DNA of 19,148 nucleotides from a virus (taxonomy: Duplodnaviria > Heunggongvirae > Uroviricota > Caudoviricetes), in IMG/VR virus record IMGVR_UViG_2547132281_000015, positions 1 to 19,148 of that record; one strand, 5' to 3'. Both the position numbers and the translations under genes were made by a program. Below are positions 1 through 17,924 of this stretch, in pieces (within the stretch, counting starts at the first letter, position 1; every line of letters begins with the position of its first letter). The notes beneath the pieces are model-generated. The model saw only the letters and a program-made list of their open reading frames with translations, had not been told where the DNA came from and made no database searches.

Positions 1-376
1 TGGTATGCCGAAAGGGATGCTGAAATTGAGAATGAAAAGCTGCGCCGGGAAGTTGAAGAACTGCGGCAGGCCAGCGAGACAGATCTCCAGCCAGGGACTA
101 TTGAGTACGAACGCCATCGACTTACGCGTGCGCAGGCCGACGCACAGGAGCTGAAAAATGCCAGAGACTCCGCTGAAGTGGTGGAAACCGCATTCTGTAC
201 TTTCGTGCTGTCGCGGATCGCAGGTGAAATTGCCAGTATTCTCGACGGGATCCCCCTGTCGGTGCAGCGGCGTTTTCCGGAACTGGAAAACCGACATGTT
301 GATTTCCTGAAACGGGATATCATCAAAGCCATGAACAAAGCAGCCGCGCTGGATGAACTGATACCGGGGTTGCTGA

Positions 377-402
<26 letters not shown>
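1..402 (+). CDS. nu1: Terminase small subunit Nu1, C-terminal fragment (5' end lies outside the window)
   Basis: Frame 1 reads ...EIENEKLRREVEELRQASE...VVETAFCTFVLSRIAGEIASILDGIPLSVQRRFPELENRHVDFLKRDIIKAMNKAAALDELIPGLLSEYIEQSG then TAA at 400-402, matching the lambda Nu1 C-terminus as I recall it. Overlaps the start of A by 26 nt as in lambda. Confidence 0.85.
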
Positions 403-4083
<3,681 letters not shown>

Positions 4084-4103
<20 letters not shown>

Positions 4104-5403
4104 TCTCCCGCATATTGCCAGCATGGCTTTTAATGAGCCGCTGATGCTTGAACCCGCCTATGCGCGGGTTTTCTTTTGTGCGCTTGCAGGCCAGCTTGGG
4201 ATCAGTCGCCTGACGGATGCAGTATCCGGCGATAGCCTGACTGCCGGAGAGGCACCCGCGGCGCTGGCGTTATCCGGTGATGATGACGGACCACGACAGG
4301 CCCGCAGTTATCAGGTCATGAACGGCATCGCCGTGCTGCCGGTGTCCGGTACGCTGGTCAGCCGGACGCGGGCGCTGCAGCCGTATTCGGGAATGACCGG
4401 TTACAACGGCATTATCGCTCGTCTGCAACAGGCTGCCAGCGATCCGATGGTGGACGGCATTCTGCTCGATATGGACACACCGGGCGGGATGGTGGCGGGA
4501 GCATTTGACTGTGCTGACATCATCGCCCGTGTGCGTGACATAAAGCCGGTATGGGCGCTGGCCAACGACATGAACTGCAGTGCAGGTCAGCTGCTTGCCA
4601 GCGCCGCCTCCCGGCGTCTGGTCACGCAGACCGCCCGGACAGGCTCCATCGGCGTCATGATGGCTCACAGTAATTACGGCGCTGCGCTGGAGAAACAGGG
4701 CGTGGAAATCACGCTGATTTACAGCGGCAGCCATAAGGTGGATGGCAACCCCTACAGCCATCTACCGGGTGATGTCCGGGAGACACTGCAGTCCCGGATG
4801 GATGCAACCCGCCGGATGTTTGCGCAGAAGGTGTCGGCATATACCGGCCTGTCCGTGCAGGCTGTGCTGGATACCGAGGCTGCAATGTACAGCGGTCAGG
4901 AGGCCATTGATGCCGGACTGGCTGATGAACTTGTCAACAGCACCGATGCGATCACCGTTATGCGTGATGCACTGGATGCACGTAAATCCCGTCTCTCAGG
5001 AGGGCGAATGACCAAAGAGACTCAATCAACAACTGTTTCAGCCACTGCTTCGCAGGCTGACGTTACTGACGTGGTGCAAGCGACGGAGGGCGAAAACGCC
5101 AGCGCGGCGCAGCCGGACGTGAACGCGCAGATCACCGCTGCGGTTGCGGCAGAAAACAGCCGCATTATGGGGATCCTCAACTGTGAGGAAGCTCACGGAC
5201 GCGAAGAACAGGCACGTGTGCTGGCCGAAACCCCCGGTATGACCGTGGAAACGGCCCGCCGCATTCTGGCAGCTGCACCACAGAGTGCACAGGCGCGCAG
5301 TGACACTGCGCTGGATCGTCTGATGCAGGGGGCACCGGCACCACTGGCTGCAGGTAACCCGGCATCTGATGCCGTTAACGATTTGCTGAACACACCAGTG
5401 TAA
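4084..5403 (+). CDS. C: Head maturation protease / minor capsid protein gpC (439 aa, S49 family), GTG start
   Basis: The ORF track extends to 3949, but the lambda-like start is the GTG at 4084 (VTAELRNLPHIASMAFNEPLMLEP...), giving 439 aa and a 20-nt overlap with the end of B, as in lambda. Confidence 0.85.
4798..5403 (+). CDS. nu3: Scaffolding protein Nu3, nested in-frame in the 3' third of C (201 aa)
   Basis: In-frame internal ATG at 4798 (MDATRRMFAQKVSAYTG...), same offset from the C stop as the lambda Nu3/C nested pair. Nested initiation is inferred by analogy, not proven by sequence. Confidence 0.7.
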   Translation: MDATRRMFAQKVSAYTGLSVQAVLDTEAAMYSGQEAIDAGLADELVNSTDAITVMRDALDARKSRLSGGRMTKETQSTTVSATASQADVTDVVQATEGENASAAQPDVNAQITAAVAAENSRIMGILNCEEAHGREEQARVLAETPGMTVETARRILAAAPQSAQARSDTALDRLMQGAPAPLAAGNPASDAVNDLLNTPV

Positions 5404-5412
5404 GGGATGTTT

Positions 5413-5745
5413 ATGACGAGCAAAGAAACCTTTACCCATTACCAGCCGCTGGGCAACAGTGACCCGGCACATACGGCAACCGCGCCCGGCGGATTGAGTG
5501 CGAAAGCGCCTGCAATGACCCCGCTGATGCTGGACACCTCCACCCGTAAGCTGGTTGCGTGGGATGGCACCACCGACGGTACTGCCGTTGGCATTCTGGC
5601 GGTTGATGCTGACCAGACCAGCACCACGCTGACGTTCTACAAGTCCGGCACGTTCCGTTATGAGGATGTGCTCTGGCCGGAGGCTGCCAGCGACGAGACG
5701 AAAAAACGGACCGCGTTTGCCGGAACGGCAATCAGCATCGTTTAA
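5413..5745 (+). CDS. D: Capsid decoration protein gpD (110 aa)
   Basis: [110 protein letters not shown], recognised as lambda gpD. Confidence 0.95.
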
Positions 5746-5762
5746 CCTTACCCTTCATCACT

Positions 5763-5787
5763 AAAGGCCGCCTGTGCGGCTTTTTTT
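5763..5787 (+). terminator. Hairpin plus T-run between D and E (partial intrinsic terminator or RNA-stability element)
   Basis: GCCGC (5767-5771), loop CTGT, GCGGC (5776-5780), extended by A/T pairs, followed by TTTTTTT at 5781-5787. Confidence 0.45.
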
Positions 5788-5800
5788 ACGGGATTTTTTT

Positions 5801-6826
5801 ATGTCGATGTACACAACCGCCCAGCTGCTGGCGGCAAATGAGCAGAAATTTAAGTTTGATCCGCTGTTTCTGCGTCTCTTTTTCCGTGAGAGCTATCCCT
5901 TCACCACGGAGAAAGTCTATCTCTCACAAATTCCGGGACTGGTAAACATGGCGCTGTACGTTTCGCCGATTGTTTCCGGTGAGGTTATCCGTTCCCGTGG
6001 CGGCTCCACCTCTGAATTTACGCCGGGATATGTCAAACCCAAGCATGAGGTGAATCCGCAGATGACCCTGCGTCGCCTGCCGGATGAAGATCCGCAGAAT
6101 CTGGCGGACCCGGCTTACCGCCGCCGTCGCATCATCATGCAGAACATGCGAGACGAAGAGCTGGCCATTGCTCAGGTCGAAGAGATGCAGGCAGTTTCTG
6201 CTGTGCTTAAGGGCAAATACACCATGACCGGTGAAGCCTTCGATCCGGTTGAGGTGGATATGGGCCGCAGTGCGGCGAACAACATCACACAGTCCGGCGG
6301 TACGGAGTGGAGCAAGCGTGACAAGTCCACGTATGACCCGACCGACGATATCGAAGCCTACGCGCTGAACGCCAGCGGTGTGGTGAATATCATCGTGTTT
6401 GATCCGAAAGGCTGGGCGCTGTTCCGTTCCTTCAAAGCCGTCAGGGAGAAGCTGGATACCCGTCGCGGCTCTAATTCCGAGCTGGAGACAGCGGTAAAAG
6501 ACCTGGGCGAAGCGGTGTCCTATAAGGGGATGTATGGCGATACGGCGATCGTCGTGTATTCCGGACAGTACGTGGAAAACGACGTCAAAAAGAACTTCCT
6601 GCCGGACAACACGATGGTGCTGGGGAACACTCAGGCACGCGGTCTGCGCACCTATGGCTGCATTCAGGATGCGGACGCACAGCGCGAAGGTATTAACGCC
6701 TCTGCCCGCTACCCGAAAAACTGGGTGACCACCGGCGATCCGGCGCGTGAGTTCACCATGATTCAGTCAGCACCGCTGATGCTGCTGGCTGACCCTGATG
6801 CGTTCGTGTCCGTACAACTGGCGTAA
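5801..6826 (+). CDS. E: Major capsid protein gpE (341 aa)
   Basis: ORF from the ATG at 5801 (MSMYTTAQLLAANEQKFKFDPLFLRLFFRESYPFTTEKVYLSQIPGLVNMALYVSP...), recognised as lambda gpE. The upstream in-frame extension from 5774 is rejected. Confidence 0.95.
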   Translation: MSMYTTAQLLAANEQKFKFDPLFLRLFFRESYPFTTEKVYLSQIPGLVNMALYVSPIVSGEVIRSRGGSTSEFTPGYVKPKHEVNPQMTLRRLPDEDPQNLADPAYRRRRIIMQNMRDEELAIAQVEEMQAVSAVLKGKYTMTGEAFDPVEVDMGRSAANNITQSGGTEWSKRDKSTYDPTDDIEAYALNASGVVNIIVFDPKGWALFRSFKAVREKLDTRRGSNSELETAVKDLGEAVSYKGMYGDTAIVVYSGQYVENDVKKNFLPDNTMVLGNTQARGLRTYGCIQDADAQREGINASARYPKNWVTTGDPAREFTMIQSAPLMLLADPDAFVSVQLA

Positions 6827-6867
6827 TCATGGCCCTTCGGGGCCATTTTCTCTCTGTGGAGGAGTCC

Positions 6868-7263
6868 ATGACGAAAGATGAACTGATTGCCCGTCTTCAG
6901 GTGCTGGGTGAGCAACTGAACCGTGATGTCAGCCTGACGGGGACGAAAGAAGAACTGGTGCTCCGTGTGGCAGAGCTGGAAGAGGAGCTTGATGACACGG
7001 ATGACGCTGCCGGTCAGGACACATCTGTCAGCCCGGAAAATGCGCTGACCGGACATGAAAATGAGGTGGTATCAGCGCAGCCGGATACCGTGATTGATAC
7101 GGCTGCTCTGGTCACGGTCGTGGCACTGGTGACGCTGCATACTGATGCACTTCACGCCACGCGGGATGAGCCTGTGGCATTTGTGCTGCCGGGAACGGCG
7201 TTCCGTGTCTCTGCCGGTGTGGCAGCTGAAATGACAGAGCGCGGCCTGGCCAGAATGCAATAA
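6868..7263 (+). CDS. FI: DNA-packaging protein FI (131 aa)
   Basis: MTKDELIARLQVLGEQLNRDVSLTGTKEELVLRVAELEEELDDTDD... with GGAGG 4 nt upstream of the ATG at 6868; matches lambda gpFI with a few substitutions relative to my recollection. Confidence 0.85.
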   Translation: MTKDELIARLQVLGEQLNRDVSLTGTKEELVLRVAELEEELDDTDDAAGQDTSVSPENALTGHENEVVSAQPDTVIDTAALVTVVALVTLHTDALHATRDEPVAFVLPGTAFRVSAGVAAEMTERGLARMQ

Positions 7264-7274
7264 CGGGAGGCGCT

Positions 7275-7628
7275 GTGGCTGATTTCGATAACCTGTTCGA
7301 TGCTGCCATTGCCCGCGCCGATGAAACGATACGCGGGTACATGGGAACGTCAGCCACCATGACATCCGGTGAGCAGTCCGGTGCTGTGATACGTGGTGTT
7401 TTTGATGACCCTGAAAATATCAGCTATGCCGGACAGGGCGTGCGCGTTGAAGGCTCCAGCCCGTCCCTGTTTGTCCGGACTGATGATGTGCGGCAGCTGC
7501 GGCGCGGCGACACGCTGACCATCGGTGAGGAAAACTTCTGGATAGACCGGATTTCGCCAGATGATGGCGGAAGCTGTCATCTCTGGCTTGGGCGGGGCGT
7601 ACCGCCTGCCGTTAACCGTCGCCGCTGA
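7275..7628 (+). CDS. FII: Head-tail connector protein FII (117 aa), GTG start
   Basis: 117-aa ORF (V/M)ADFDNLFDAAIARADETIRGYMGTSATMTSGEQSGAVIRGVFDDPENISYAGQGVRVEGSSPSLFVRTDDVRQLRRGDTLTIGEENFWIDRISPDDGGSCHLWLGRGVPPAVNRRR, recognised as lambda gpFII. Confidence 0.85.
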   Translation: MADFDNLFDAAIARADETIRGYMGTSATMTSGEQSGAVIRGVFDDPENISYAGQGVRVEGSSPSLFVRTDDVRQLRRGDTLTIGEENFWIDRISPDDGGSCHLWLGRGVPPAVNRRR

Positions 7629-8403
7629 AAGGGGGATGTATGGCCATAAAAGGTCTTGAGCAGGCCGTTGAAAACCTCAGCCGTATCAGCAGAACGGCGG
7701 TGCCCGGTGCCGCCGCAATGGCCATTAGTGCAGTTGTTACATAACTGAGTTTATGTAAGTCTTCATCATTCAGACGAGTGAGGGCTGGGACAGTAGCCAT
7801 GATGGCAGCCTCCTTGATCGGTGAAATACTTCCACCACCGGAAACGCCAATTTCGCTGGTGGTGAACTGAACGGGGTTGGCGTAACCGGTGATCAAGGAA
7901 ACCGGCGCATCTTTCGATGCCCCCGCCCAGCCCACCATAACTTTGATGTGAGCAAATGCGGACGATAAAAAAGACGCTGGCGCGTCATATATCGCCTTGA
8001 TCAATTCCAGGACGCCAATCCCGGCACCCGCTTTATAAGGTGCCTGAACAGTGTAACGTCCCGGAATGGCAGAATCAATGTGCTGGTGGTCCTTCACACT
8101 CAACAAAATCACGCCTGAATTTCCACAAAGGACTAAAGCACTCATGCGGGTAGTCTTTGCGAAGATAGATAACGCGCTGTGTTTCTGGTTCCCAACGAAT
8201 AACATGGACATAAAGCCCTCTTCCGTCACGAAACCAGCGGTTAAGTTCCCGCACAACTCGCCCCCCACAGTCAGGTAAAGTTCTCTGTGGTTACTTACAG
8301 CCAGGTGATTTGGTAATCTGCATTCATGCCGTAACAACAGGTGTTCAGCGACACTGACCACCAGCTGTTGCGACAAACGGTTATTTGCCGTTAAACTGTT
8401 CAT
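7612..8403 (-). CDS. Hypothetical early-right protein, 3' end disrupted at the rearrangement junction (native part about 7730-8403)
   Basis: 263-aa ORF whose ATG (8401-8403) overlaps the TGA of the upstream CII-like gene (ATGA coupling). Its last ~40 codons are read through the antisense of the lambda Z/FII sequence, so the true C-terminus is missing. No recognisable motif. Confidence 0.45.
   Translation of the reverse strand: MNSLTANNRLSQQLVVSVAEHLLLRHECRLPNHLAVSNHRELYLTVGGELCGNLTAGFVTEEGFMSMLFVGNQKHSALSIFAKTTRMSALVLCGNSGVILLSVKDHQHIDSAIPGRYTVQAPYKAGAGIGVLELIKAIYDAPASFLSSAFAHIKVMVGWAGASKDAPVSLITGYANPVQFTTSEIGVSGGGSISPIKEAAIMATVPALTRLNDEDLHKLSYVTTALMAIAAAPGTAVLLIRLRFSTACSRPFMAIHPPFSGDG
7640..7747 (+). 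pseudogene. Z: Tail gene Z remnant: first ~29 codons lambda-like, then divergence and stop after 35 codons
   Basis: MAIKGLEQAVENLSRISRTAVPGAAAMAI matches the lambda gpZ N-terminus (192 aa in lambda); the frame then reads SAVVTN and stops at TGA 7745-7747. No U, V, G, T, H... tail genes follow. Confidence 0.75.
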
Positions 8404-8963
8404 GCGTTAGTTTCTCCACAGACACAAAACGCCACGACGCCCGGAGCTGCACACTCGCGGGCGTCACTCTTTTCTGGAGCGCAAAAGATTTTGTAGACCA
8501 GTGCTGCATGCTCTTGGAGCTTCGAAATTGACAGATACAACTCATCATTAATTGCTGTCTGCTCGTGTGGCTCCACGACCCCATCTTCGATTGCCGAACG
8601 AATCTGCTTTGAGTAATTCCCGATCTGTTCGATGACTTCCAGCAGGCGCTGGTTTATATCGGCGTTCTCTACTTCCTCAATTTCAGGAAGCGATACGAAC
8701 ACCCCACCAGCAGACTGTGCGACAGCATCCGCAATGTAGTGAGTGCCAGCCGCGCGCTGTAAAACCATTGCCCATCCCAGCGGGAAAATCTGATCGCCAT
8801 CGGCACGAAGGCGGTTAAATAATGCGTTCTCTGTTACATCCAGCCAGTCAGCTGCTTCAGCGTAACCACCCGGCAACGCTGCGATAGTTTTTCTGACAGC
8901 TTTCACGTACCACTCAGGCTGTTTTTCTACTTTCCAGTGATACTTACCCACGGTTAGCCTCAT
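8400..8963 (-). CDS. CII-like early regulator (YdaT / phage CII family), tentative
   Basis: 187-aa ORF immediately downstream of the cro-like gene on the same strand, the position CII/YdaT occupies in Rac- and CP-933P-type prophages. Assignment rests on position, size and vague recollection of the family. Start uncertain (poor SD at 8963; alternative GTG four codons in). Confidence 0.5.
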   Translation of the reverse strand: MRLTVGKYHWKVEKQPEWYVKAVRKTIAALPGGYAEAADWLDVTENALFNRLRADGDQIFPLGWAMVLQRAAGTHYIADAVAQSAGGVFVSLPEIEEVENADINQRLLEVIEQIGNYSKQIRSAIEDGVVEPHEQTAINDELYLSISKLQEHAALVYKIFCAPEKSDARECAAPGVVAFCVCGETNA

Positions 8964-8994
8964 CGTTCTGTGGTTAAAAATTGAAGGTGTTCTG

Positions 8995-9195
8995 TTAATC
9001 TTTCGGATAGATATCCGGTCTTAAGTCAGATTTCGTAATTGCACCTGACGTGCATTGCTCAAGTTTTTTCGCCAGCACAAAACTGGCTTTTTTATAACCA
9101 TTGAAAACCAGCCGTAAGTAGCCAGGTGTTGAGCCAACTTTTCCGGCCAACTCGCCCTGCTGTTCTTTGGTTAAAGAGTCCCAATACGCTTTCAT
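8995..9195 (-). CDS. Cro-like HTH regulator (YdaS/Cro family, 66 aa)
   Basis: MKAYWDSLTKEQQGELAGKVGSTPGYLRLVFNGYKKASFVLAKKLEQCTSGAITKSDLRPDIYPKD; GGAGG about 10 nt upstream of the ATG at 9195; divergent from the cI-like gene. The longer 167-aa ORF to 9498 is rejected. Confidence 0.7.
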   Translation of the reverse strand: MKAYWDSLTKEQQGELAGKVGSTPGYLRLVFNGYKKASFVLAKKLEQCTSGAITKSDLRPDIYPKD

Positions 9196-9285
9196 ACAAT
9201 ATGTACCTCCGATATACATATTACATGATTGAAATGAACCTTCAAGATACTTGTACCTTATCGGTACAAAGGTTTTAATTTCGTT
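9196..9285. promoter_or_regulatory. Divergent cro/cI control region (pR-like and pRM-like promoters with operator-like palindromes)
   Basis: Operator-like 19-mers ATGTACCTCCGATATACAT (9201-9219) and TTGTACCTTATCGGTACAA (9251-9269, 7-bp perfect inverted arms). Candidate pRM: -35 TTGTAC 9251-9256, 17-nt spacer, -10 TTTAAT 9274-9279, ending 6 nt before the cI ATG (possibly leaderless). Candidate pR on the minus strand: -10 TAATAT at 9218-9223, -35 TTGAAG at 9240-9245. Confidence 0.5.
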
Positions 9286-9960
9286 ATGAAAACAATCCAT
9301 GACATCCGGCGGTCTAACGCCAGAAAACTGAGAGATGGTGTTGGCGGGAATTCTTCCTTTGCCACCATGATTGATCGCGAGCCAACCCAGACCAGCAGGT
9401 TTATGGGAGATGGTGCTACTAAAAATATCGGTGACAGCATGGCGCGGCACATCGAAAAATGTTTCGACCTGCCTGTCGGATGGCTTGATCAAGAACACCA
9501 GACCACGAACATCACAAAAAAACCTGATGTTTCAATCACTAACAAACAAATAACGTTAGTCCCTGTCATATCATGGGTACAGGCCGGAGCATGGAAAGAA
9601 GTTGGCTATTCTGAGGTTGATTTGAGCACAGCAGAAACTTACCCCTGCCCTGTACCCTGTGGCGAAATGACTTATATCTTGCGGGTGATTGGTGATTCAA
9701 TGATTGATGAGTACCGCCCTGGAGACATGATTTTTGTTGATCCCGAAGTCCCTGCCTGCCACGGTGACGACGTTATTGCATTGATGCACGATACAGGCGA
9801 AACCACCTTCAAGCGATTGATAGAAGATGGAACACAGCGTTATCTCAAAGCATTAAACCCAAACTGGCCTGAGCCTTACATTAAGATTAACGGTAATTGC
9901 TCTATAATTGGTACAGTGATTTTCTCGGGAAAACCAAGAAGATACACAATAAAGGCCTAA
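9286..9960 (+). CDS. cI-like prophage repressor with C-terminal LexA/S24 autopeptidase domain (224 aa)
   Basis: C-terminal half carries the S24 signature: candidate Ala-Gly cleavage site (VQAGAW), Ser nucleophile in GDSM, Lys in TFKRL. Divergent from the cro-like gene. Confidence 0.85.
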   Translation: MKTIHDIRRSNARKLRDGVGGNSSFATMIDREPTQTSRFMGDGATKNIGDSMARHIEKCFDLPVGWLDQEHQTTNITKKPDVSITNKQITLVPVISWVQAGAWKEVGYSEVDLSTAETYPCPVPCGEMTYILRVIGDSMIDEYRPGDMIFVDPEVPACHGDDVIALMHDTGETTFKRLIEDGTQRYLKALNPNWPEPYIKINGNCSIIGTVIFSGKPRRYTIKA

Positions 9961-9971
9961 TCAATATTTAT

Positions 9972-9996
9972 GAACCTGCTTCGGCAGGTTTTTTTA
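9972..9996 (+). terminator. Intrinsic terminator of the cI-like gene
   Basis: GAACCTGC (9972-9979), loop TTCG, GCAGGTT (9984-9990), then a run of T to 9996; begins 12 nt after the cI stop. Confidence 0.75.
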
Positions 9997-9999
9997 TAC

Positions 10000-10027
10000 T
10001 TGACAATGTACCCATGAGATACATAAT
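10000..10027 (+). promoter_or_regulatory. pL-like early-left promoter with embedded operator-like site
   Basis: -35 TTGACA (10000-10005), 16-nt spacer, -10 CATAAT (10022-10027). The spacer and -10 contain ATGTACCCATGAGATACAT (10006-10024), matching the 9201-9219 motif at 15 of 19 positions. Confidence 0.55.
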
Positions 10028-10445
10028 GTATCCAAAAGAAACATGAGGCAGGCAAAATTCAAACAAAATTTGGTTGTAACACGGCGTATGGCACATGCGT
10101 CGTTAGCGGTCTGGGGACGTTAAAGGGGACAATCCACTTCTTGCTCGGGCAAACAAACCAGGTAGCCGGAATGTGCAAGTCAATGATGATGCTGATAAGA
10201 CGCCTAACCAGCGTGGCGATCCGGTTTGACGCCTGGGAAGAGACCAGGGTGCAACGATGAGGGCATTTATAGAGCCGCGACAAAGTGTGGTGCCGTAACT
10301 GGCTAAGTGCTCTCAGCGTTGTGGTAATCCGCGAAATGGCGCGGCGGTAAGTATGGCGGGGTTACTCTTTCCCCGTTGAGGACACCGGATTGTCAGGTTG
10401 ACCATACGCCTGAGTGACAACCCCACCACAACAGCCACTGCTTTG

Positions 10446-10491
10446 GCGGTACCAGTTTGTACACTTGCTTCCGGCTGGTACCGCTCTTTTT
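10446..10491 (+). terminator. Intrinsic terminator (or nut/boxA-like element) at the end of the early-left leader
   Basis: Perfect 10-bp inverted repeat GCGGTACCAG (10446-10455) / CTGGTACCGC (10475-10484) followed by TCTTTTTAC. The CGCTCTTTTTACAA stretch also resembles boxA (CGCTCTTA / GCTCTTTAACAA). Confidence 0.55.
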
Positions 10492-10628
10492 ACAAAATAG
10501 AGAAGAGCATCACCGGACGACGGGCTCATAACCCAATCCATCCGGGCGGCTGCCACCGCAGGTGTTCTTCTCTGTTTTGTGGAGAAACCAACCGACCTTG
10601 CAGGGTCGATATGATGAGGAGCAGCAAA

Positions 10629-10991
10629 ATGGCTAGCGAACGCAGTACTGATGTGCAGGCATTTATCGGGGAGCTGGACGGCGGCGTATTTGAAACCAAA
10701 ATCGGCGCAGTTCTCAGTGAAGTCGCTTCCGGTGTGATGAACACGAAAACCAAAGGTAAGGTCTCACTCAACCTGGAAATCGAACCATTTGATGAGAACC
10801 GTGTGAAAATCAAACACAAACTCTCATATGTTCGCCCGACTAACCGCGGGAAAATTTCCGAAGAAGACACCACCGAAACGCTGATGTATGTCAATCGCGG
10901 TGGTCGCCTGACTATTCTGCAGGAAGACCAGGGACAATTACTGACTCTTGCCGGTGAACCTGACGGAAAACTACGCGCAGCAGGTCATTAA
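10629..10991 (+). CDS. yfdP: YfdP-like early-left protein (120 aa)
   Basis: ATG at 10629 preceded by GAGGAG (10616-10621) gives 120 aa, the size of E. coli K-12 CPS-53 YfdP, and it is followed by YfdQ/R/S/T-like genes in K-12 order. The upstream in-frame extension from 10398 is treated as leader. Confidence 0.6.
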   Translation: MASERSTDVQAFIGELDGGVFETKIGAVLSEVASGVMNTKTKGKVSLNLEIEPFDENRVKIKHKLSYVRPTNRGKISEEDTTETLMYVNRGGRLTILQEDQGQLLTLAGEPDGKLRAAGH

Positions 10992-11056
10992 TATCGTTCT
11001 TAATTAACTGATTATTTATCTCATCACTGAATATCTTTATATAGTGAGGACTTATT

Positions 11057-11881
11057 ATGTCTCAGAACTTAGACGCAACCGCAATTAATCAAATCCATGC
11101 CCTTATTTCTGCTCAGGGTGTTAATGAAATTATCAGTAATATTGGTGCCGATGCTGTGGCATTGCCTGAGAATTTCCGCATTCATGATCTGGAAAAATTT
11201 AATTTAAATCGCTTCCGTTTCCGTGGTGCGCTTTCCACTGCCAGCATCGATGACTTTACCCGTTATTCTAAAGATCTTGCAGATGAAGGCACCCGCTGCT
11301 TTATCGATGCTGATAATATGCGTGCCGTCAGTGTACTTAACCTGGGTACTATTGATGAACCAGGTCACGCAGATAACACCGCCACTCTCAAACTGAAAAA
11401 GACAGCACCGTTCTCTGCCCTGTTGTCTGTTAACGGCGAGCGTAACTCCCAGAAGTCACTGGCAGAATGGATTGAAGACTGGGCCGACTACCTTGTGGGC
11501 TTTGATGCTAATGGTGACGCTATTCAGGCAACAAAAGCGGCTGCGGCAGTCCGTAAAATCACGATTGAAGCAAACCAGACCGCTGATTTTGAAGATAATG
11601 ACTTCAGCGGCAAACGCTCCCTGATGGAGTCTGTCGAAGCGAAGACCAAAGACATTATGCCAGTGGCATTTGAATTTAAATGCGTTCCGTTTGAAGGTCT
11701 GAAAGAACGTCCGTTTAAATTACGCCTCAGCATTATCACTGGCGATCGTCCTGTACTGGTTCTGCGCATTATTCAGCTGGAGGCGGTGCAGGAAGAAATG
11801 GCTAACGAATTTCGTGATCTGCTTGTTGAGAAATTCAAGGACAGCAAAGTAGAAACCTTTATTGGTACTTTCACCGCCTGA
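11057..11881 (+). CDS. yfdQ: YfdQ-like protein (DUF2303 family, 274 aa)
   Basis: 274-aa ORF with GAGGA SD, same length as K-12 YfdQ and the same position in a yfdP-Q-R-S-T array. Family assignment from recollection. Confidence 0.65.
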
Positions 11882-11893
11882 TTTCATTACTGC

Positions 11894-11915
11894 AAATGCC
11901 CCTGCGGGGGCATTT
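11894..11915 (+). terminator. GC-rich hairpin between yfdQ-like and yfdR-like (possible attenuator)
   Basis: AAATGCCCC (11894-11902), loop TGCG, GGGGCATTT (11907-11915); no clean T-run afterwards. Confidence 0.35.
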
Positions 11916-12008
11916 ATGGAAACGTAATTTACTCAATAATCGCCGGATGGTGAGGGATTCTTTTTACCAGAATTCAGCGCGGTGCAGCGCATATACGTGG
12001 AGAACAAA

Positions 12009-12545
12009 ATGTCATTTATCAAAACTTTTTCTGGGAAGCATTTTTATTATGACAGGATAAATAAAGACGACATCGATATTAACGATATCGCGGTTTCCCT
12101 TTCAAATATCTGTCGCTTTGCCGGTCATCTTTCGCACTTCTACAGCGTCGCCCAACATGCGGTTCTTTGCAGCCAGCTGGTGCCGCAGGAATTTGCTTTT
12201 GAAGCGTTAATGCATGATGCAACAGAAGCGTATTGCCAGGACATTCCCGCACCACTGAAACGCCTTCTTCCTGACTATAAACGGATGGAAGAAAAAATAG
12301 ACGCCGTAATCCGTGAGAAATACGGGTTACCCCCGGTTATGAGTACACCCGTGAAATATGCCGATCTCATCATGCTGGCAACCGAACGCCGCGATCTCGG
12401 GCTTGATGATGGCTCTTTCTGGCCTGTACTGGAAGGCATCCCGGCAACAGAGATGTTCAACGTGATTCCACTGGCACCGGGCCATGCCTACGGGATGTTT
12501 ATGGAACGTTTTAACGATTTATCGGAGTTACGCAAATGCGCATGA
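12009..12545 (+). CDS. yfdR: HD-domain phosphohydrolase, YfdR-like 5'-deoxynucleotidase (178 aa)
   Basis: ATG at 12009 with GGAGA SD gives 178 aa (the K-12 YfdR length). HD signature: His in AGHLSHFYSVAQHAV and HD in LMHDATEAY. Stop overlaps the next gene by 10 nt. Confidence 0.75.
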   Translation: MSFIKTFSGKHFYYDRINKDDIDINDIAVSLSNICRFAGHLSHFYSVAQHAVLCSQLVPQEFAFEALMHDATEAYCQDIPAPLKRLLPDYKRMEEKIDAVIREKYGLPPVMSTPVKYADLIMLATERRDLGLDDGSFWPVLEGIPATEMFNVIPLAPGHAYGMFMERFNDLSELRKCA

Positions 12546-12898
12546 ATGTTTTCGAAATGGAAGGGTTTCTTCGCGGGAAATGTGTACCGCGAGATCTGAA
12601 AGTGAACGAAACAAATGCTGAGTACCTGGTACGTAAATTCGACGCGCTTGAAGCTAAATGTGCGGCACTGGAAAACAAAATAATACCAGTGTCAACTGAA
12701 CTGCCACCAGCAAATGAAAGTGTTCTGTTATTTGATGCTAATGGAGAAGGCTGGCTGATTGGCTGGCGTTCTCTCTGGTACACCTGGGGACAAAAAGAAA
12801 CCGGAGAATGGCAGTGGACATTTCAGGTCGGGGACCTTGAAAACTTCAATATCACTCACTGGGCAGTAATGCCCAAAGCGCCGGAGGCTGGAGCATAA
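12536..12898 (+). CDS. yfdS: YfdS-like protein (120 aa)
   Basis: 120-aa ORF, the K-12 YfdS length; start overlaps the yfdR-like stop, stop overlaps the next start (TAATG). Confidence 0.6.
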   Translation: MRMNVFEMEGFLRGKCVPRDLKVNETNAEYLVRKFDALEAKCAALENKIIPVSTELPPANESVLLFDANGEGWLIGWRSLWYTWGQKETGEWQWTFQVGDLENFNITHWAVMPKAPEAGA

Positions 12899-13518
12899 TG
12901 ACCACATTTACCAATAAAGAACTGATTAAAGAAATCAAAGAACGAATCAGCAGCCTAGAGGTTCGAGACGATATTGAGCGCCGTGCTTATGAAATTGCTC
13001 TGGCATCGCTGGAAGAGGAGCCGGTGGCATGGCTGCATTCAGACAATGGCTTAGGTATTCCGGCAATAACCAGGAGCAAAAACATTGCTGACAGTTGGTT
13101 ATCAATGGGCTGGTATGTTCAGCCGCTATATATAGCCAAGCCAGTACTGGTGGTGCCAGATGCTCGTCCGTCTTTAAATAATGGCATAGTCGGTTTTGAT
13201 GAAGGCTGGAACGCCTGCCGCGCCACCATGCTTCATGGTGCCAAACCTGTAAGCCAGACTTACAAGTTGAACAAGCTGTCGGGCAACTCTCCGGTAACTC
13301 AGGATGGTTGGATAAGCTGTAGTGAGCGAATGCCGAACGATAAACAGTATGTTTGGTGTTGGGGTAAGTCTTACGGCTGGACTGAGTGCGATACCTTCGA
13401 AGGGTATTACGATTGGTCGAGAAACAAATGGTGGGCAGTTACTGACGATGGGGAAGAACCGGCATCGAAAGTAACCCACTGGATGCCGCTACCGGAGCCA
13501 CCGCAGGAGGTGAAGTAA
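12898..13518 (+). CDS. YfdT-like protein with C-terminal Trp/Cys-rich DUF551-type region (206 aa)
   Basis: 206-aa ORF translationally coupled at both ends; C-terminus ...DKQYVWCWGKSYGWTECDTFEGYYDWSRNKWWAVTDDGEEPASKVTHWMPLPEPP resembles DUF551 ends. About twice the size of the K-12 yfdT product (101 aa as I recall). Confidence 0.5.
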   Translation: MTTFTNKELIKEIKERISSLEVRDDIERRAYEIALASLEEEPVAWLHSDNGLGIPAITRSKNIADSWLSMGWYVQPLYIAKPVLVVPDARPSLNNGIVGFDEGWNACRATMLHGAKPVSQTYKLNKLSGNSPVTQDGWISCSERMPNDKQYVWCWGKSYGWTECDTFEGYYDWSRNKWWAVTDDGEEPASKVTHWMPLPEPPQEVK

Positions 13519-13712
13519 TGAACAACTTAATGACAACTAAACAAGTCGCCGACTTCTGTGGCGTTTCAGTATCGACCGTTCTTCGCTGGAACAGCGTAAA
13601 CAGGAGAACTGGCCAGAAATACAGGCCTGACTTTCCAGATCCTGATATTAAATCCTGCCCAAATAAATGGGCATCACGCAAGATATACAGGTTTGCTGGA
13701 GTTATTGAGTGA
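13518..13712 (+). CDS. AlpA/Xis-like small HTH protein (candidate excisionase, 64 aa)
   Basis: MNNLMTTKQVADFCGVSVSTVLRWNSVNRRTGQKYRPDFPDPDIKSCPNKWASRKIYRFAGVIE; HTH followed by a basic/aromatic tail, as in AlpA/TorI-type excisionases. Last gene of the early-left operon, on the integrase side. Confidence 0.6.
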   Translation: MNNLMTTKQVADFCGVSVSTVLRWNSVNRRTGQKYRPDFPDPDIKSCPNKWASRKIYRFAGVIE

Positions 13713-13747
13713 TGGGTATTAGCTCATATCAGAACTAATACCCATCA
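13710..13747. terminator. Strong hairpin at the convergence point of the early-left operon and the SIR2 gene (candidate bidirectional terminator)
   Basis: T-GATGGGTATTAG (13710-13722), 12-nt loop, CTAATACCCATC-A (13735-13747): 13-bp perfect stem overlapping the xis-like stop codon. No T-run on either side. Confidence 0.45.
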
Positions 13748-13914
13748 ATGACACAGAGCCAACTACCCACCCTGTGTCAGGGGCTAACTTTTAACACCAT
13801 AATTCACCGCTAGATAAAAACTGTATTGCATTGCACGAGCGGCGCAGCATTATCAGTTAGAGTGTCTTTACCTTGTTAGGCTCCACAGTTCGCACTGTCC
13901 AACGCCTGTCACTT

Positions 13915-16900
13915 TCACACGCTGCGCCTTCGAGAATATTCATTTAATCGCTGATAACGAACATCTTGCTCCAGTTGTGGAGCAGCTTGAACAATTTGAA
14001 GCAAGCATTGCCCCAACTCTCGAGGCCCCCAGTGTTGTTCGGCAATCACGGCATTCAGCAGGGATAGAGCGTCCGCAGGATATCGGCTGCAAATATCTGA
14101 TTCTAGCAAAAGGCGAACGTCGTAGCTAAGGTGTTCGAGCGGTTGCAGCCAGTCCTGCACCACTGCCAAAGCCGCCGGAAATTCACCTCGGGCAGCAATC
14201 ACCATACGAGTCAACGATTCGGATATGCGTGGGGTGGCCAAGTTGCGGGACTTTGGCCAAACCTGTTGCCAAAATGGCTGGACACGATTTTTCCAATACT
14301 CCTCGCGCTGATCGCCCGCACCTTCAAGTGCCTGGTATAACGCCTGCGCGGCTACCTCCAGACCTTCTTGTGGAAGAGCACTAATTGCCGTTCGGAACTC
14401 CTCCACGGTATATCCCTCGGTAGGGCCCAGAGCTGCATAAGTCAGGAAAATAGCGAATTGCTGCCGGTGCTCGCCAAGATCAGAATAGTGATTGGCGCTC
14501 TCCAAAAAATCTGACTTGAAAGCTATCAGCAACGGTTCATACAGGCGTGGCGACCAGAGGAAGCCTTCCCACACAGCTTTTGCTTCGACGGGATTACTCC
14601 AAGCAAACAAGGGCAATAGATACTGTTCGGTCCAAGGTCGATCTACGCGAAAAAATGCGATCAGCCGCGACCCCAGCAACACCCGACCATGGCGGAATAG
14701 CTCTATCTGTACATTACACAATTTGGTGAAAAGTGTTTTCAATTCAACAGGAAGCAAATCATTGTCATTCGGGTTCTGTTTGAACCATAGGGTGATCAGT
14801 GATTGCGTGACATGCCCAATGGGATGATTGATCGCCGTAGAAACAGGATCATAGGTCTCAATTCCGTTTCGAATGGTGCTAGACTCTGGGCTTGTTTCTA
14901 TCATCAGAACCCGACGACAAAGGGCCAGTAGAATCTCCTCGTGGCAGAGGATGGTCTTCGAAGCCTCCTCCATCCACCAAGTGACAGCGTGGGAAATCTC
15001 CTGAAGTACTGCGTCAGGCATGTCAAGCACCAACGGTGCGGCGTACCGCCACGAACGCAAAATCATCCCTGGTTCAGCCCAAGTCTGCAGAGCTTCACGC
15101 CACCGACCAACAGGCCACACATCATCTTGTGATAGTTTACGTAACGCATACAGACTGTGAAAAAAGCGCGTACGGCAAACATCACTCCAAGTGTCCTCAT
15201 AGAAAGGCAGTCTTTCTGGCATAGGCTTTGCGAGCCATTGCACTAATTCCTGCCACTTACGGGGCGCAATGTCGACATCTATACTCTCCTCGAAGCCTGG
15301 ATCACCGGTTCCGCTCATCCAGTGAGAGAATTCATCACGCTCGTTGGTTGCCAGTTGCCATTTTGGGTATGCTGTGGATATTTCCGTCAAACGTGTAGCC
15401 GCAGACTCTCCCAAAACAAGGCCCGCTCCCCTGAGCTTCGCTAGACACAACCAGACGGAATGAGCCACCAAATAATGCCACCTGTCTGCTTCCAAATTAT
15501 CCTCGTACATCTCGCGCGGAGGCCCTGCCAAGATAGCAGTTTCCAGACGCTCTTGTGCAATTCCTGTCAGATGTCGTCCCTGCAAAACAAACAGTCTGAA
15601 TACCTCTCGCCGAGTATCCGTGGCCCACAACCACCATGAACCGTCCTCTAACAACCAATTAACCCACCGCTCAGGTGGTATGCAGTTGTCTTGGCTTGCG
15701 GCAAACAGTGCCAGACGTTTGAAGGTGGGATATGGCAACTCAAACCAATTCTGAGCAATGCGCGAGGCCTGATCGCTGTCTTTGGCTCGAACGGCTAACC
15801 ACGAATCCCGAAGTAATTCAATCAGGCTCACCCAATCGCGGAACCCCCGGTTCTGCCAGTGCGGAGTGATGGACGGCAAATCCCAATGCGAGCGGTCGTG
15901 ACGATCGTCGGACTCTCCCAACTCCCGCAACAAGTCCAGTGCATCACGCAACAACTGCTGAAAATCTTCCAACAGGTATGGCAAGGACGATTTCCATGAC
16001 TCGTCAGCAAGGTCGAACAGGGTTGAACGTACGTAATCAGCAGTCAGCACCAGCTCCCAATCCACCAATTGCTTGATTCGCAAGGGTTCATCAGTGCTGC
16101 TCGAATCGTCTTCACTATAGCGAAACGGCCGCCTCAACATAACCTTGGGAGAAAGCAACCCGCGTAACTCCAAGCGCAATGTAGTCGTCAAGCCTTCATT
16201 CTTTAAGCGGTTTTGCCAACGATACAAATCCAGGTTCTGCAATGGCGATTTCACACGACCACTAAGCAGAAGCCGCCATAAAGTAGACATAGGTGGACCA
16301 GGAATAGCCAGGGGGGAATGCAAGAGAATTTCATCTAACTCAGAAGTCTTACGCTCCCGCATCAGTGCTGCTAAGCGATCTAGTTCGCTCTCAATCAGAA
16401 ACATCCAACGGTCGTGTATTTGTCCGCCGCGTTCAGCAATCCATATGATCAACCTAGGGTCGCCCAGATAACGAACTAGCCAACGGGCTATATGGGACAT
16501 TACGTCATCCCATTTGCTAGCACTGACACATCCAGAAACCAGCGACATCTGCGGGGCCAGCTCATAGGGCGCTGGACGCTGAACCAGACTGAATCGGAGT
16601 TTCGGGTCAATTTCGACATGCGGAGATACACAAAAGCGTGGCAGATCGCTGTATTTAAATCGTTCGTCCGAGAAAGCTTTCAATAACCAATCCAGCGGCG
16701 GTGCAGGATTGAGTTCCGCAAAGCGTTTTGCTGGTAAACCTGATTTATCTGACAAGGCCCACAACATCCGACCAACGAAATCGTCCTGACGAGTGCTGTC
16801 CTGCGGGCGGGCCAGAGCATGTTTGACGACTATAGCCTCTTTGCCCTGTATACCATCTCGATAAGTATCTGCCCAAGCGTGCAACGTTTGATGCAGCACT

Positions 16901-17742
16901 GAATGATCAGTGGAGCCCGCCGGTACGGTGTAAAGGATAGGAGTGACCCCTTTGGCCTCCCACTCGATGGCTTTCCGGTGCTCCTGCCCCGGCTCACACT
17001 CCCCCAGTGCCCATACTTGTGGTGTGACTTCACCGAGCCTCCGATCTGCTGCAAGCGCATCCATCATGTAGCGCAGTACCGGGTCGTTGATGCTGTAGCC
17101 AACGAAGCAGACCACATAGTTACGAAATAACTCACTCACAAAGCGAGCTGCCCAACGCTCAGTGAGATAAGCCAAGCCAAAGTCACCGCTGGTAACAACC
17201 AGACGATTCAGGGCAGTATCATCCGCCTTTTCCGGTAACAGCCCATGCAGGTATACAAGTCCATCCCAGCGGCTGTTTTTTGGAATTGGCAGCATCGGCG
17301 CTACATAGGCCTGAAAAGCCTGGCCTGTACGTTTAGCTGCCACATGAAAGAGACGGTCAAAGTTGGTAGTGACCAATCGAAGGGCACCCTCGCGGCTACG
17401 GGCTAAACGTAACAGCGCCGCCTGAGTATCAATAGCGCCCCTACGACGGAGCTTTGGCTTAAGGGCTTTTTCCAACGCGCGTCGGACGGCTATACGCTGC
17501 CCTGGTAAGCGCCGTTCCAGCAAATCTAATGTGCCGTCAAATTGCCCACGCTCGAAAACCTCACGCTCAATTTCTGAAAGTGTTGTTCCGTTCCTCTGGT
17601 AAATTAGTTCTACCAACCCTTTGAAACCAGGTAAACCAGCAGGGTAGGAAATGCCTGCTCCACAGAAGAACACAACGCGCCCTTCCTCGTGCGCCTGCAA
17701 AAGCTCATCAGGAATATCAGGGCCGTTGGTAATGAATTGCAT
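13915..17742 (-). CDS. SIR2-like (sirtuin/NADase) domain protein, 1275 aa; candidate single-gene anti-phage defence protein (DSR-like)
   Basis: N-terminal ~300 aa carry SIR2-type motifs: FFCGAGISYP (GAG, res 28-30), VTTNFD (Asn127/Asp129), VYLHGLL (His166), VVTSGDFG, FVGYSINDP. GGAGG 9 nt upstream of the ATG at 17742. The remaining ~950 aa is W/L/R-rich with no P-loop. Confidence 0.8.
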   Translation of the reverse strand: MQFITNGPDIPDELLQAHEEGRVVFFCGAGISYPAGLPGFKGLVELIYQRNGTTLSEIEREVFERGQFDGTLDLLERRLPGQRIAVRRALEKALKPKLRRRGAIDTQAALLRLARSREGALRLVTTNFDRLFHVAAKRTGQAFQAYVAPMLPIPKNSRWDGLVYLHGLLPEKADDTALNRLVVTSGDFGLAYLTERWAARFVSELFRNYVVCFVGYSINDPVLRYMMDALAADRRLGEVTPQVWALGECEPGQEHRKAIEWEAKGVTPILYTVPAGSTDHSVLHQTLHAWADTYRDGIQGKEAIVVKHALARPQDSTRQDDFVGRMLWALSDKSGLPAKRFAELNPAPPLDWLLKAFSDERFKYSDLPRFCVSPHVEIDPKLRFSLVQRPAPYELAPQMSLVSGCVSASKWDDVMSHIARWLVRYLGDPRLIIWIAERGGQIHDRWMFLIESELDRLAALMRERKTSELDEILLHSPLAIPGPPMSTLWRLLLSGRVKSPLQNLDLYRWQNRLKNEGLTTTLRLELRGLLSPKVMLRRPFRYSEDDSSSTDEPLRIKQLVDWELVLTADYVRSTLFDLADESWKSSLPYLLEDFQQLLRDALDLLRELGESDDRHDRSHWDLPSITPHWQNRGFRDWVSLIELLRDSWLAVRAKDSDQASRIAQNWFELPYPTFKRLALFAASQDNCIPPERWVNWLLEDGSWWLWATDTRREVFRLFVLQGRHLTGIAQERLETAILAGPPREMYEDNLEADRWHYLVAHSVWLCLAKLRGAGLVLGESAATRLTEISTAYPKWQLATNERDEFSHWMSGTGDPGFEESIDVDIAPRKWQELVQWLAKPMPERLPFYEDTWSDVCRTRFFHSLYALRKLSQDDVWPVGRWREALQTWAEPGMILRSWRYAAPLVLDMPDAVLQEISHAVTWWMEEASKTILCHEEILLALCRRVLMIETSPESSTIRNGIETYDPVSTAINHPIGHVTQSLITLWFKQNPNDNDLLPVELKTLFTKLCNVQIELFRHGRVLLGSRLIAFFRVDRPWTEQYLLPLFAWSNPVEAKAVWEGFLWSPRLYEPLLIAFKSDFLESANHYSDLGEHRQQFAIFLTYAALGPTEGYTVEEFRTAISALPQEGLEVAAQALYQALEGAGDQREEYWKNRVQPFWQQVWPKSRNLATPRISESLTRMVIAARGEFPAALAVVQDWLQPLEHLSYDVRLLLESDICSRYPADALSLLNAVIAEQHWGPRELGQCLLQIVQAAPQLEQDVRYQRLNEYSRRRSV

Positions 17743-17924
17743 TCCTTTTCCTCCTATCCAATGTGCACGTTCATTCGAGTAAATGAAGGCAAGGGGTTAC
17801 ATCTTATTATACCGACCGTGCAAATCCGGCTTCCTAGCAAGCTACTTTACTTGCCAACTCATAATGTCCGAACTCCGAACAAAGCGGACTGCTAGATTTG
17901 ATTGCGTTCTAGCTACGCAAAATA
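17743..17924 (-). promoter_or_regulatory. Integrase-SIR2 intergenic region with candidate own promoter for the SIR2 gene
   Basis: Perfect -10 TATAAT on the minus strand (plus-strand 17806-17811), about 64 nt upstream of the SIR2 ATG; no good -35 at 17-nt spacing. Confidence 0.3.

Follow-up and report, generated by a model that had tools for sequence, protein, structure and literature searches.

How does the early-left operon of a lambdoid prophage run on into its genes when its transcript opens with some 600 nucleotides (nt) that look empty and contain a strong terminator? The question is raised by positions 10,028 to 10,628 of IMG/VR virus record IMGVR_UViG_2547132281_000015, and the whole stretch analysed here (19,148 nt, positions 1 to 19,148 of the record) is called the window. 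It covers part of a lambdoid prophage of the SfV/cdtI-like kind, and its + strand corresponds to the "leftward" direction. An earlier note on this DNA had described a leader between a pL-like promoter and the first early-left gene (ATG 10629), and had supposed that expression of the operon requires antitermination. We found that the leader is not spacer but a series of five structured RNA modules, X-H-Y-T-Z, which assort independently. We suggest that it is the non-coding 5' part of the pL transcript, which is repressed by CI, and that this part is processed into several non-coding RNAs in the manner of the dicBF operon of the Qin prophage, with a leaky terminator and an extra cassette, X; we consider the chances of this reading to be somewhat better than even. 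The modules are as follows.

10081..10251, + strand: X core, a pseudoknotted structured RNA of ~170 nt, defined by a covariance model, covariation and homologues
10251..10323, + strand: H, a helix of ~20 base pairs (bp; GCAACGAUGAGGGCAU ... AAGUGCUCUCAGCGUUGUG) around a variable insert, with compensated strand pairs and its 3' junction after GUUGUG
10324..10424, + strand: Y, a structured spacer with a hairpin CCGCG/CGCGG and two interleaved helices, homologous to Qin
10445..10491, + strand: T, a hairpin terminator with a 13-bp stem, a 15-nt loop and a UCUUUUU tail (free energy, dG, -21.2 kcal/mol; z = -3.2)
10492..10580, + strand: Z, a long helix of ~20 bp (ACAAAAUAGAGAAGAGCAUCACC ... GGUGUUCUUCUCUGUUUUGU), a structure in the 5' untranslated region of the yfdP-family gene

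Comparison of the leader with phage genomes by BLAST cut it into three parts. Positions 9990-10061 hold the end of cI and pL and are common to SfV, positions 10062-10423 form a middle block, part of which (module X) has 78-82% homologues in unexpected surroundings, and positions 10424-10640 run from the hairpin up to the first gene and travel together with that gene in SfV, SfII, SfIV, ST64B and others. For the leader as a whole, folding was more favourable on the + strand, with z = -2.75 against z = -1.47 on the - strand, and at least 80% of X-H-Y-T was present in 814 of the 5,426 complete E. coli genomes (~15%), Stx2-converting prophages included. Nearly all of it is conserved structured RNA with compensatory base changes, which bears out the structured non-coding RNA that the earlier note had named as one of its options. 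When we searched the region 9950-10700 against Rfam 15 at the gathering threshold and at E <= 10, X, H, Y and Z gave only chance-level matches at E <= 10, and the X or Y homologues of phage P1, phiV10, a Klebsiella phage and mEp390 gave no Rfam match at E <= 0.1. That X and Y are degenerate tRNAs was rejected by the ARAGORN test, which detected neither tRNAs nor tmRNAs in the window. What had passed for an "empty" 600-bp leader, annotated with spurious hypothetical proteins in phage records, becomes in this way a defined array of RNA modules with coordinates.

Module X was examined through its most conserved block, a near-invariant 19-mer. A scan of IMG/VR with the 19-mer gave at least 120 loci, with 107 distinct sequence variants among the matches listed, and 30 representatives of these variants were aligned for the analysis of covariation. 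Four helices are supported by the alignment, as is a pseudoknot in which CACC of the P4 loop pairs with GGUG further downstream, and all of the family's features (P1, P2, P4, P5, the loop-to-3' pseudoknot and the 19-mer block) are present in the window.

10082-10102, + strand: helix P1, a hairpin, from the X alignment
from 10108, + strand: helix P2, the closing helix, from the X alignment
10161-10179, + strand: the near-invariant 19-mer GGUAGCCGGAAUGUGCAAG, from conservation
10200-10214, + strand: P4 hairpin with a 7-nt loop, from the X alignment
10223-10226, + strand: GGUU, which forms the pseudoknot with AACC of the P4 loop, from a compensated change
10232-10248, + strand: P5 hairpin, from the X alignment

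The window pseudoknot, AACC:GGUU against CACC:GGUG elsewhere, is thus itself a compensated change. Over the 30 sequences 95.8% of the cells pair and double changes occur in 11 of the 26 pairs; none of 500 shuffles matched the observed value, and when the partners were slid by 1-3 columns, 31-50% of the cells paired. The invariant U-G pairs of X are compatible with the + strand only. A search for RNA structure by covariance model, which the earlier note had proposed as a check, was run for X and returned a single copy in the window at 140 bits (E = 2.5e-45), the window sequence being a member of the seed alignment. RNAalifold also offered a long-range pairing of GCACAU in the P1 loop with AUGUGC. 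This pairing was discarded and the local P1 hairpin adopted, because the hairpin shows a clear G-C to A-U exchange, while the long-range pairing has no supporting variation and two natural variants alter the G of AUGUGC without compensation. A full-text search of the paper library for the 19-mer gave no paper, and keyword searches for a described motif likewise gave none. X, absent from Rfam 15 and without a match to its conserved block in that library, is an undescribed RNA family.

A second scan, with an independent X anchor and one genome per species, gave 15 true matches, all in Enterobacterales; the 19-mer was exact in 13 of them, and the same G was changed in the other two. Matches of the genome scan in Rivihabitans and Elusimicrobia were put down to chance, as they lacked every other X feature and the Elusimicrobia locus scored 9.3 bits with the X model. 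In total, X was found in at least 128 distinct contexts in temperate phages of Enterobacterales. It lies just 3' of a CI/S24 repressor gene in at least 54 of the 128 contexts, directly upstream of tRNA-Arg(UCU) and divergent from the portal gene in 25, and directly after tRNA-Ile2, which is the phage P1 arrangement, in 13; otherwise its 3' neighbour is Y (22) or a hairpin like the 5' part of STnc100 (27). It adjoins a tRNA in 39 of the 128 contexts, and there the junction coincides with the tRNA end. Homologues lie between tRNA-Ile (trnI) and ban in P1, P7 and D6, end exactly at the first base of the tRNA-Arg gene in phiV10, TL-2011b, SPN1S, Tyrion and Klebsiella epsilon15-like phages, and lie within the pL leader in mEp390; the immediate neighbours of X differ completely among P1, epsilon15-like and lambdoid genomes. 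The X model found one copy in phage P1, and it found no X in SfV, HK022, Qin or LLS. X is a widespread RNA that is missing from Rfam 15 and unannotated even in P1, P7 and D6. Because X is a stand-alone cassette beside tRNA genes in unrelated temperate phages, we consider that it most likely acts as a free, stable RNA which recognises a host or phage factor through its near-invariant, single-stranded 19-mer, and its role would then be in trans.

Several relatives showed further features at or near the place of X. Phage P1 (locus L003, 2514-2691 and 230-400, ban operon) has X between trnI and ban, and Y with a terminator right after the ban promoter; its X core is followed by UUUUCUGGUGAUGAC, which resembles the DicF 5' seed. 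SfV (L002 3440-3610, - strand) has at X's place orf33, a PHROG of unknown function, together with an apparent small ORF on the opposite strand, judged by eye, that ends at an annotated terminator; the orf33 region has the look of a gene cassette (moron) that was inserted there. Many relatives have one more conserved hairpin, CCUGAUGUGGUGAAAAGACAGG, just past pL, among them LLS (L149 2140-2240), SfV (L002 3640-3680) and, upstream of X, several IMG/VR loci. In some cases, such as LLS, a second terminator-like hairpin comes after it. The window lacks CCUGAUGUGGUGAAAAGACAGG.

Modules H and Y connect the leader with the DicF precursor of E. coli K-12. H lies directly after X as a helix of 19-21 bp that closes the variable insert and ends in GUUGUG, the module boundary. 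It occurs in 30 distinct versions of its two strands, which differ by many compensated changes and have folding energies of -23 to -31 kcal/mol; random re-pairing averages -15 kcal/mol. The same helix is found in Qin upstream of dicF (z = -3.1) and in LLS (z = -3.2). Positions 10318-10424 of the window are 93.5% identical to the ydfC-dicF spacer of K-12 Qin, and Y is homologous to the 190-nt DicF precursor in its 5' part; Y is also 75% identical to the annotated 'dicF-like region' of phage P1, which consists of Y and an unrelated terminator. In the Y alignment (10 sequences of low diversity) 97.2% of the cells pair with three compensated pairs, and compensated changes in its two interleaved helices indicate that Y is a probable pseudoknot. 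The Qin order, ydfC-H-Y-dicF-terminator-dicB, is collinear with Y and T of the window. Of the two reported DicF species, the one of 190 nt receives its 5' end from RNase III, and the 53-nt form is produced by RNase E (bioRxiv 10.1101/2023.04.14.536235, citing Faubladier 1990). Counted 190 nt back from the Qin terminator, the 5' end of the longer species would fall in the 3' strand of Qin H, and H may be an RNase III-type processing helix.

The corresponding stretch of K-12 Qin, between ydfC and dicF (L131 1422-1607), holds the H helix and the probable pseudoknot Y, both absent from Rfam, at 75-93% identity to active phages. Conserved structured parts are accordingly common to active phages and to the long DicF precursor of K-12, and the long form of DicF may have a structured functional 5' domain.

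Module T is the hairpin that had drawn attention to the leader. The earlier note had described a perfect 10-bp inverted repeat followed by a terminator U-tract at 10446-10491, and this was confirmed. The arms, GCGGTACCAG (10446-10455) and CTGGTACCGC (10475-10484), are extended by flanking pairs to the 13-bp stem, and the tail reads CGCTCTTTTTACAA; T has the GC-rich stem-loop and the directly following U-tract of an intrinsic (Rho-independent) terminator. A simple terminator scanner passed over it, since that program accepts loops of at most 8 nt and the loop of T has 15. The stem is compensated in relative L092, where GGUACC/GGUACC becomes GGUGCC/GGCACC, and a terminator is kept even where the sequence is replaced, unrelated terminators standing at the T position in LLS, phage P1 and others. 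T is placed where DicF sits in Qin, after H and Y in a repressor-controlled prophage operon and with a hairpin and U-tract at its end. It shares UUUGGCGGUAyCAGUUUuAC with DicF, and its 5' arm matches DicF at ~18 of 21 nt. With the DicF model (RF00039; gathering threshold 48 bits) the region 9950-10700 gave no match even at E <= 10, and Qin DicF scored 76.7 bits in the same test; the STnc100 model (RF02076; gathering threshold 47 bits) gave no match in the window leader. In SfV, an STnc100-like match of 216 nt, which at 39.5 bits falls below the gathering threshold, has the homologue of T as its terminal hairpin. Judged from its position, T is best read as a putative DicF-type small RNA (sRNA) terminator that would also serve as an attenuator, and not as a boxA site.

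Module Z begins immediately after the U-tract of T, and positions 10492-10640 fold with a dG of -57.6 kcal/mol (z = -4.4). Compensated variants of Z were found in relatives L148, L098, L134 and L092 and in LLS. Z travels together with T and the yfdP-family gene even without X, as in SfV and LLS, and the terminator is always followed by Z, which is probably a second processing or stability element.

The leader is preceded by the repressor gene cI (9286-9960), which encodes a protein with a helix-turn-helix and an S24 peptidase domain, and is flanked by the following features.

9972..9991, + strand: intrinsic terminator of the cI transcript, GAACCTGC-TTCG-GCAGGTTT and then a T-run, annotated as a terminator in phages Ayreon and SfV
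10000..10027, + strand: pL-type sigma-70 promoter, TTGACA, 16-nt spacer and CATAAT, annotated as a promoter in Ayreon
10592..10643, + strand: start of the first early-left gene, with a small hairpin (10592-10608), the Shine-Dalgarno sequence GAGGAG (10616-10621) and ATG 10629

The pL-like promoter of the earlier note proved to be near consensus (11 of 12 matches) and overlapped by an operator, OL (10006-10025), a 20-nt operator-like motif ATGTACCCATGAGATACATA that is repeated twice between cI and cro (9201-9220 and 9234-9253). Because this motif recurs in the cI-cro intergenic region and the promoter follows cI and its terminator, the promoter is a CI-controlled pL, and its transcription would start near 10034. 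Past the leader lie a yfdP-family gene (phrog_204; 10629-10991; annotated as yfdP family in LLS), DUF2303/yfdQ, a YfbR-like phosphatase, two DUF551 proteins and xis. The records of Ayreon, SfV, LLS and Stx2a_WGPS2 show the same layout, and none of the four has an N gene in that region. A GC-rich hairpin after the DUF2303 gene (11895-11916, + strand; AAAUGCCCC-UGCG-GGGGCAUUU and a short U-run), annotated as a terminator in Ayreon, is a potential second stop within the early-left operon. On the minus strand, positions 9962-10036, which cover the cI terminator and pL, gave weak sub-threshold Rfam matches to STnc50 and STnc370, which probably only mirror the bidirectional terminator hairpin.

Our model starts from features that the analysis showed, namely the promoter and operator, the lack of coding potential, the structures with their covariation, the way in which the modules are distributed, and their homologues in Qin, P1 and SfV. 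Upon derepression, RNA polymerase would start near 10034 and transcribe X as a compact, pseudoknotted RNA of ~170 nt. RNase III would then cut the ~20-bp H helix, as at the homologous Qin helix, and release X from a Y-T RNA of ~170 nt, the presumed counterpart of the 190-nt DicF precursor, whose 3' end would be formed by intrinsic termination at T. T would thus have a dual role as the 3' end of a DicF/STnc100-type sRNA and as a site of transcription attenuation. RNase E and RNase P may contribute further processing steps. Partial read-through at T would let some polymerases pass and make the Z helix and the yfdP-yfdQ-...-xis mRNA, with no boxA/N system involved. Some observations weigh against this model. 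T matches neither the DicF nor the STnc100 covariance model, so that its function as an sRNA is assigned by position only; the RNase III site in H is placed solely by the size of the Qin 190-nt species; and support for the Y pseudoknot is thin, with three compensated pairs in 10 sequences. In addition, the T hairpin is strong (-21 kcal/mol) and has a U-rich tail, and with a second hairpin at 11895-11916 and xis at the far end of the operon, active antitermination could be needed.

Four other explanations of the leader were weighed against the processed, dicBF-type transcript. The first concerns the tail of T, which the earlier note had also read as a boxA-like element and which might accordingly be a lambda-type N/nut or an rrn-type boxA antitermination site. 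The string in question, CGCUCUUU, agrees with the lambda boxA consensus, CGCUCUUA, at 7 of 8 positions. However, it spans the foot of the T stem and the U-tract and runs on into Z: its CGC(U) is the 3' base of the T stem and is paired, and its ACAA lies in the 5' strand of helix Z. The string is not kept in homologues, whose hairpins carry CCGUCC, CCGACC or CCGCCC in place of CCGCUC, and a scan with the rrn boxA consensus (fixed length, at most 3 mismatches) missed the site while returning 6 other sites against 4.8 expected by chance. No boxB hairpin is present, and no N-like protein was found in the window, in SfV orf33 or among the annotated proteins of the LLS region shown. The earlier note's remark that no N-like gene is visible holds for the window's downstream genes, and SfV orf33, considered as an N analogue, was rejected as a PHROG of unknown function with no N-like match. 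For LLS, no N homologue has been reported (PMC12315714). Of the parts of the lambda N/nut system (a single-stranded boxA, a boxB hairpin and an N gene), the last two are missing and the boxA-like site is partly paired; the boxA resemblance is coincidental, and we give this explanation next to no credence. That the leader codes for one or more small proteins overlooked by ordinary gene calling seems hardly more probable. Short open reading frames (ORFs) do exist on both strands, and the records of Ayreon, 2H10, cdtI and mEp390 list some of them as hypothetical proteins. Those on the + strand within 10034-10628 are 20-39 amino acids (aa) long, with the single exception of the TTG-started ORF 10398-10991, which is no more than an in-frame upstream extension of the first gene, and the leader ORFs have no Shine-Dalgarno sequence upstream. 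None is conserved: among the 107 sequence variants, the reading frames over the most conserved stretch show 44-45 different start/stop layouts. The 28-aa ORF 10414-10500 becomes 66 aa in near-identical relatives through a change of TAG to CAG, and sequence variation tracks base-pairing rather than codons. The earlier note was right that the leader has no convincing ORF, and its suggestion of a small unannotated protein found no support.

The remaining two explanations give X a role in cis. X or another module might bind the elongating RNA polymerase and replace N/nut, as an RNA-only processive antitermination element comparable to HK022 put or Bacillus EAR. No N homologue is present in the window, Ayreon, SfV, LLS or Stx2a_WGPS2; X lies 30-60 nt past a repressor-controlled promoter in at least 54 contexts, like putL; terminators follow X in most contexts; and a second terminator-like hairpin precedes xis in the operon. 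The same question of early terminators has been raised for N-less phages of the LLS/ST64B type, and put-like antitermination has been proposed for the LLS type (PMC12315714). However, the put analogy drawn in the earlier note found no support in similarity. A blastn-short comparison of the leader and of its phiV10 and mEp390 versions with the HK022 immunity region gave only chance 9-14-mers, putL read directly is unrelated, and the X model gave a non-significant 5.8 bits (E = 0.78) in HK022. X occurs once in the window and at one place per lambdoid record, not after both pL and pR, and no copy serves the pR operon, most of which the window lacks. SfV and LLS have T, Z and yfdP but no X, and read-through of the same terminator is therefore independent of X. 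In epsilon15-like phages X lies in a short unit (X, tRNA-Arg, a terminator and one small ORF) that converges on the terminase gene, and in phage P1 it is 2.3 kb inside the ban operon. Finally, Qin dicBF has its sRNA terminator upstream of protein genes and passes it without an N gene or the X core, and dicB is still expressed when derepressed (bioRxiv 10.1101/2023.04.14.536235). We consider a put-like mechanism unlikely. A bolder form of our reading of X makes it a new, self-contained class of functional phage RNA, whose 19-mer and pseudoknot directly bind the host transcription machinery or another host factor, which provides protein-free early antitermination or host takeover in SfV/cdtI/Stx2c-type phages, the role that N has in lambda, and whose cassette is reused by P1 and epsilon15-like phages; to this we also assign a low probability, and offer it as speculation. 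A cis switch, in which X is the sensor domain of a riboswitch- or attenuator-like element that governs the formation of T, for instance by pairing of the 19-mer with the T loop and 3' arm, has in its favour that such pairing is possible in window-type loci (16 bp with two bulges, -23 kcal/mol, z ~ -2.4 against shuffled 19-mers) and that the pseudoknotted fold of X is complex and leaves near-invariant nucleotides unpaired. But the complementarity is gone in the diverged L092 and L126 (-15 to -17 kcal/mol, z > 0) and absent in further contexts, the tRNA-linked and phage P1 loci among them, X and T assort independently, and ~200 nt with two other structured modules separate them. The 19-mer as an anti-terminator paired to T was rejected on the ground that the pairing is not conserved among relatives, and we regard a switch of this kind as very unlikely.

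The processed, dicBF-type transcript with a leaky T remains our preferred explanation, and the locus offers material for following how LLS, ST64B and SfV types pass their early terminators to reach xis, since X, T and Z are separately deletable and natural relatives without X provide controls.

Other parts of the window showed features of their own. The only Rfam families found in the window are full-length matches on the - strand to C4 antisense RNA (7855-7942, 82 bits) and isrK (7967-8043, 64 bits). Both lie inside a called 263-aa Ash-family ORF (7612-8403), and the true Ash-family gene probably starts downstream of them; the region resembles an antirepressor control module, P1 immI-like or of the IsrK type, set among lambdoid immunity genes, and SfV has the same pair. 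Lambda-like head genes at 377-7628 (+ strand; large terminase, portal, protease/scaffold, major head protein, FI and head closure FII) stop at 7628, head-on with immunity genes (Ash-like and CII-like, 7612-8963, - strand), and no tail, lysis, Q or replication genes lie between the head and immunity genes. This break of synteny at ~7628 points to a prophage with a deletion or rearrangement, or else to two elements that lie side by side. At 13915-17742 (- strand), a 1275-aa SIR2-domain protein gave a full-length match to the defence protein Dsr1 (PADLOC, 2734 bits); its gene stands between xis and a P4-type integrase gene (17925-19148, - strand), on the strand opposite to xis, and represents either defence cargo at the end of the prophage or an adjoining island.

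When the leader is compared with known systems, structured phage non-coding RNAs such as GOLLD, ROOL, C4 of phage P1 and CI of P4 are often found beside tRNA genes or are cut from early leader transcripts, by RNase P in the case of C4 and CI. X resembles these RNAs in context only, by its tRNA adjacency and early-leader position; GOLLD and ROOL are much larger, the leader has no Rfam match to GOLLD, ROOL, C4 or CI, and X showed no antisense target of the kind that C4 and CI have. HK022 putL and putR are likewise non-coding RNAs, putL lying just past pL in a lambdoid phage without N, and put acts by factor-independent antitermination that depends on the zinc-binding domain of the RNA polymerase beta' subunit. 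X has ~170 nt and a pseudoknot, is present in one copy and also turns up away from operon leaders, whereas put is ~70 nt with two long stems and is present in both early operons. Another sRNA encoded in an early-left operon is PreS of lambda (bioRxiv 10.1101/2024.10.31.621285), which differs from the window modules in both sequence and phage. STnc100 (RF02076), a prophage-associated sRNA, has its 5' end at the GUUGUG/GUGAAU junction after X or H in many loci, whereas its body is replaced by Y in the window. The closest counterpart is dicBF of Qin with its DicF RNA (RF00039). Its downstream gene is dicB, in contrast to yfdP and others in the window, and Qin has the ydfABC genes upstream and no X core; as for DicF itself, its 5' seed (UUUCUGGUGAC) is missing from the window, the 3' arm and loop of T differ, and its model gives no match. 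Nevertheless, dicBF is also a repressor-controlled early-left-type operon of a lambdoid prophage, with the H helix, a 93.5% identical Y and then a hairpin and U-tract right upstream of protein genes, and its published model, in which RNase III and RNase E process the transcript and termination forms the 3' end of the sRNA, is the one that we propose for the window leader.

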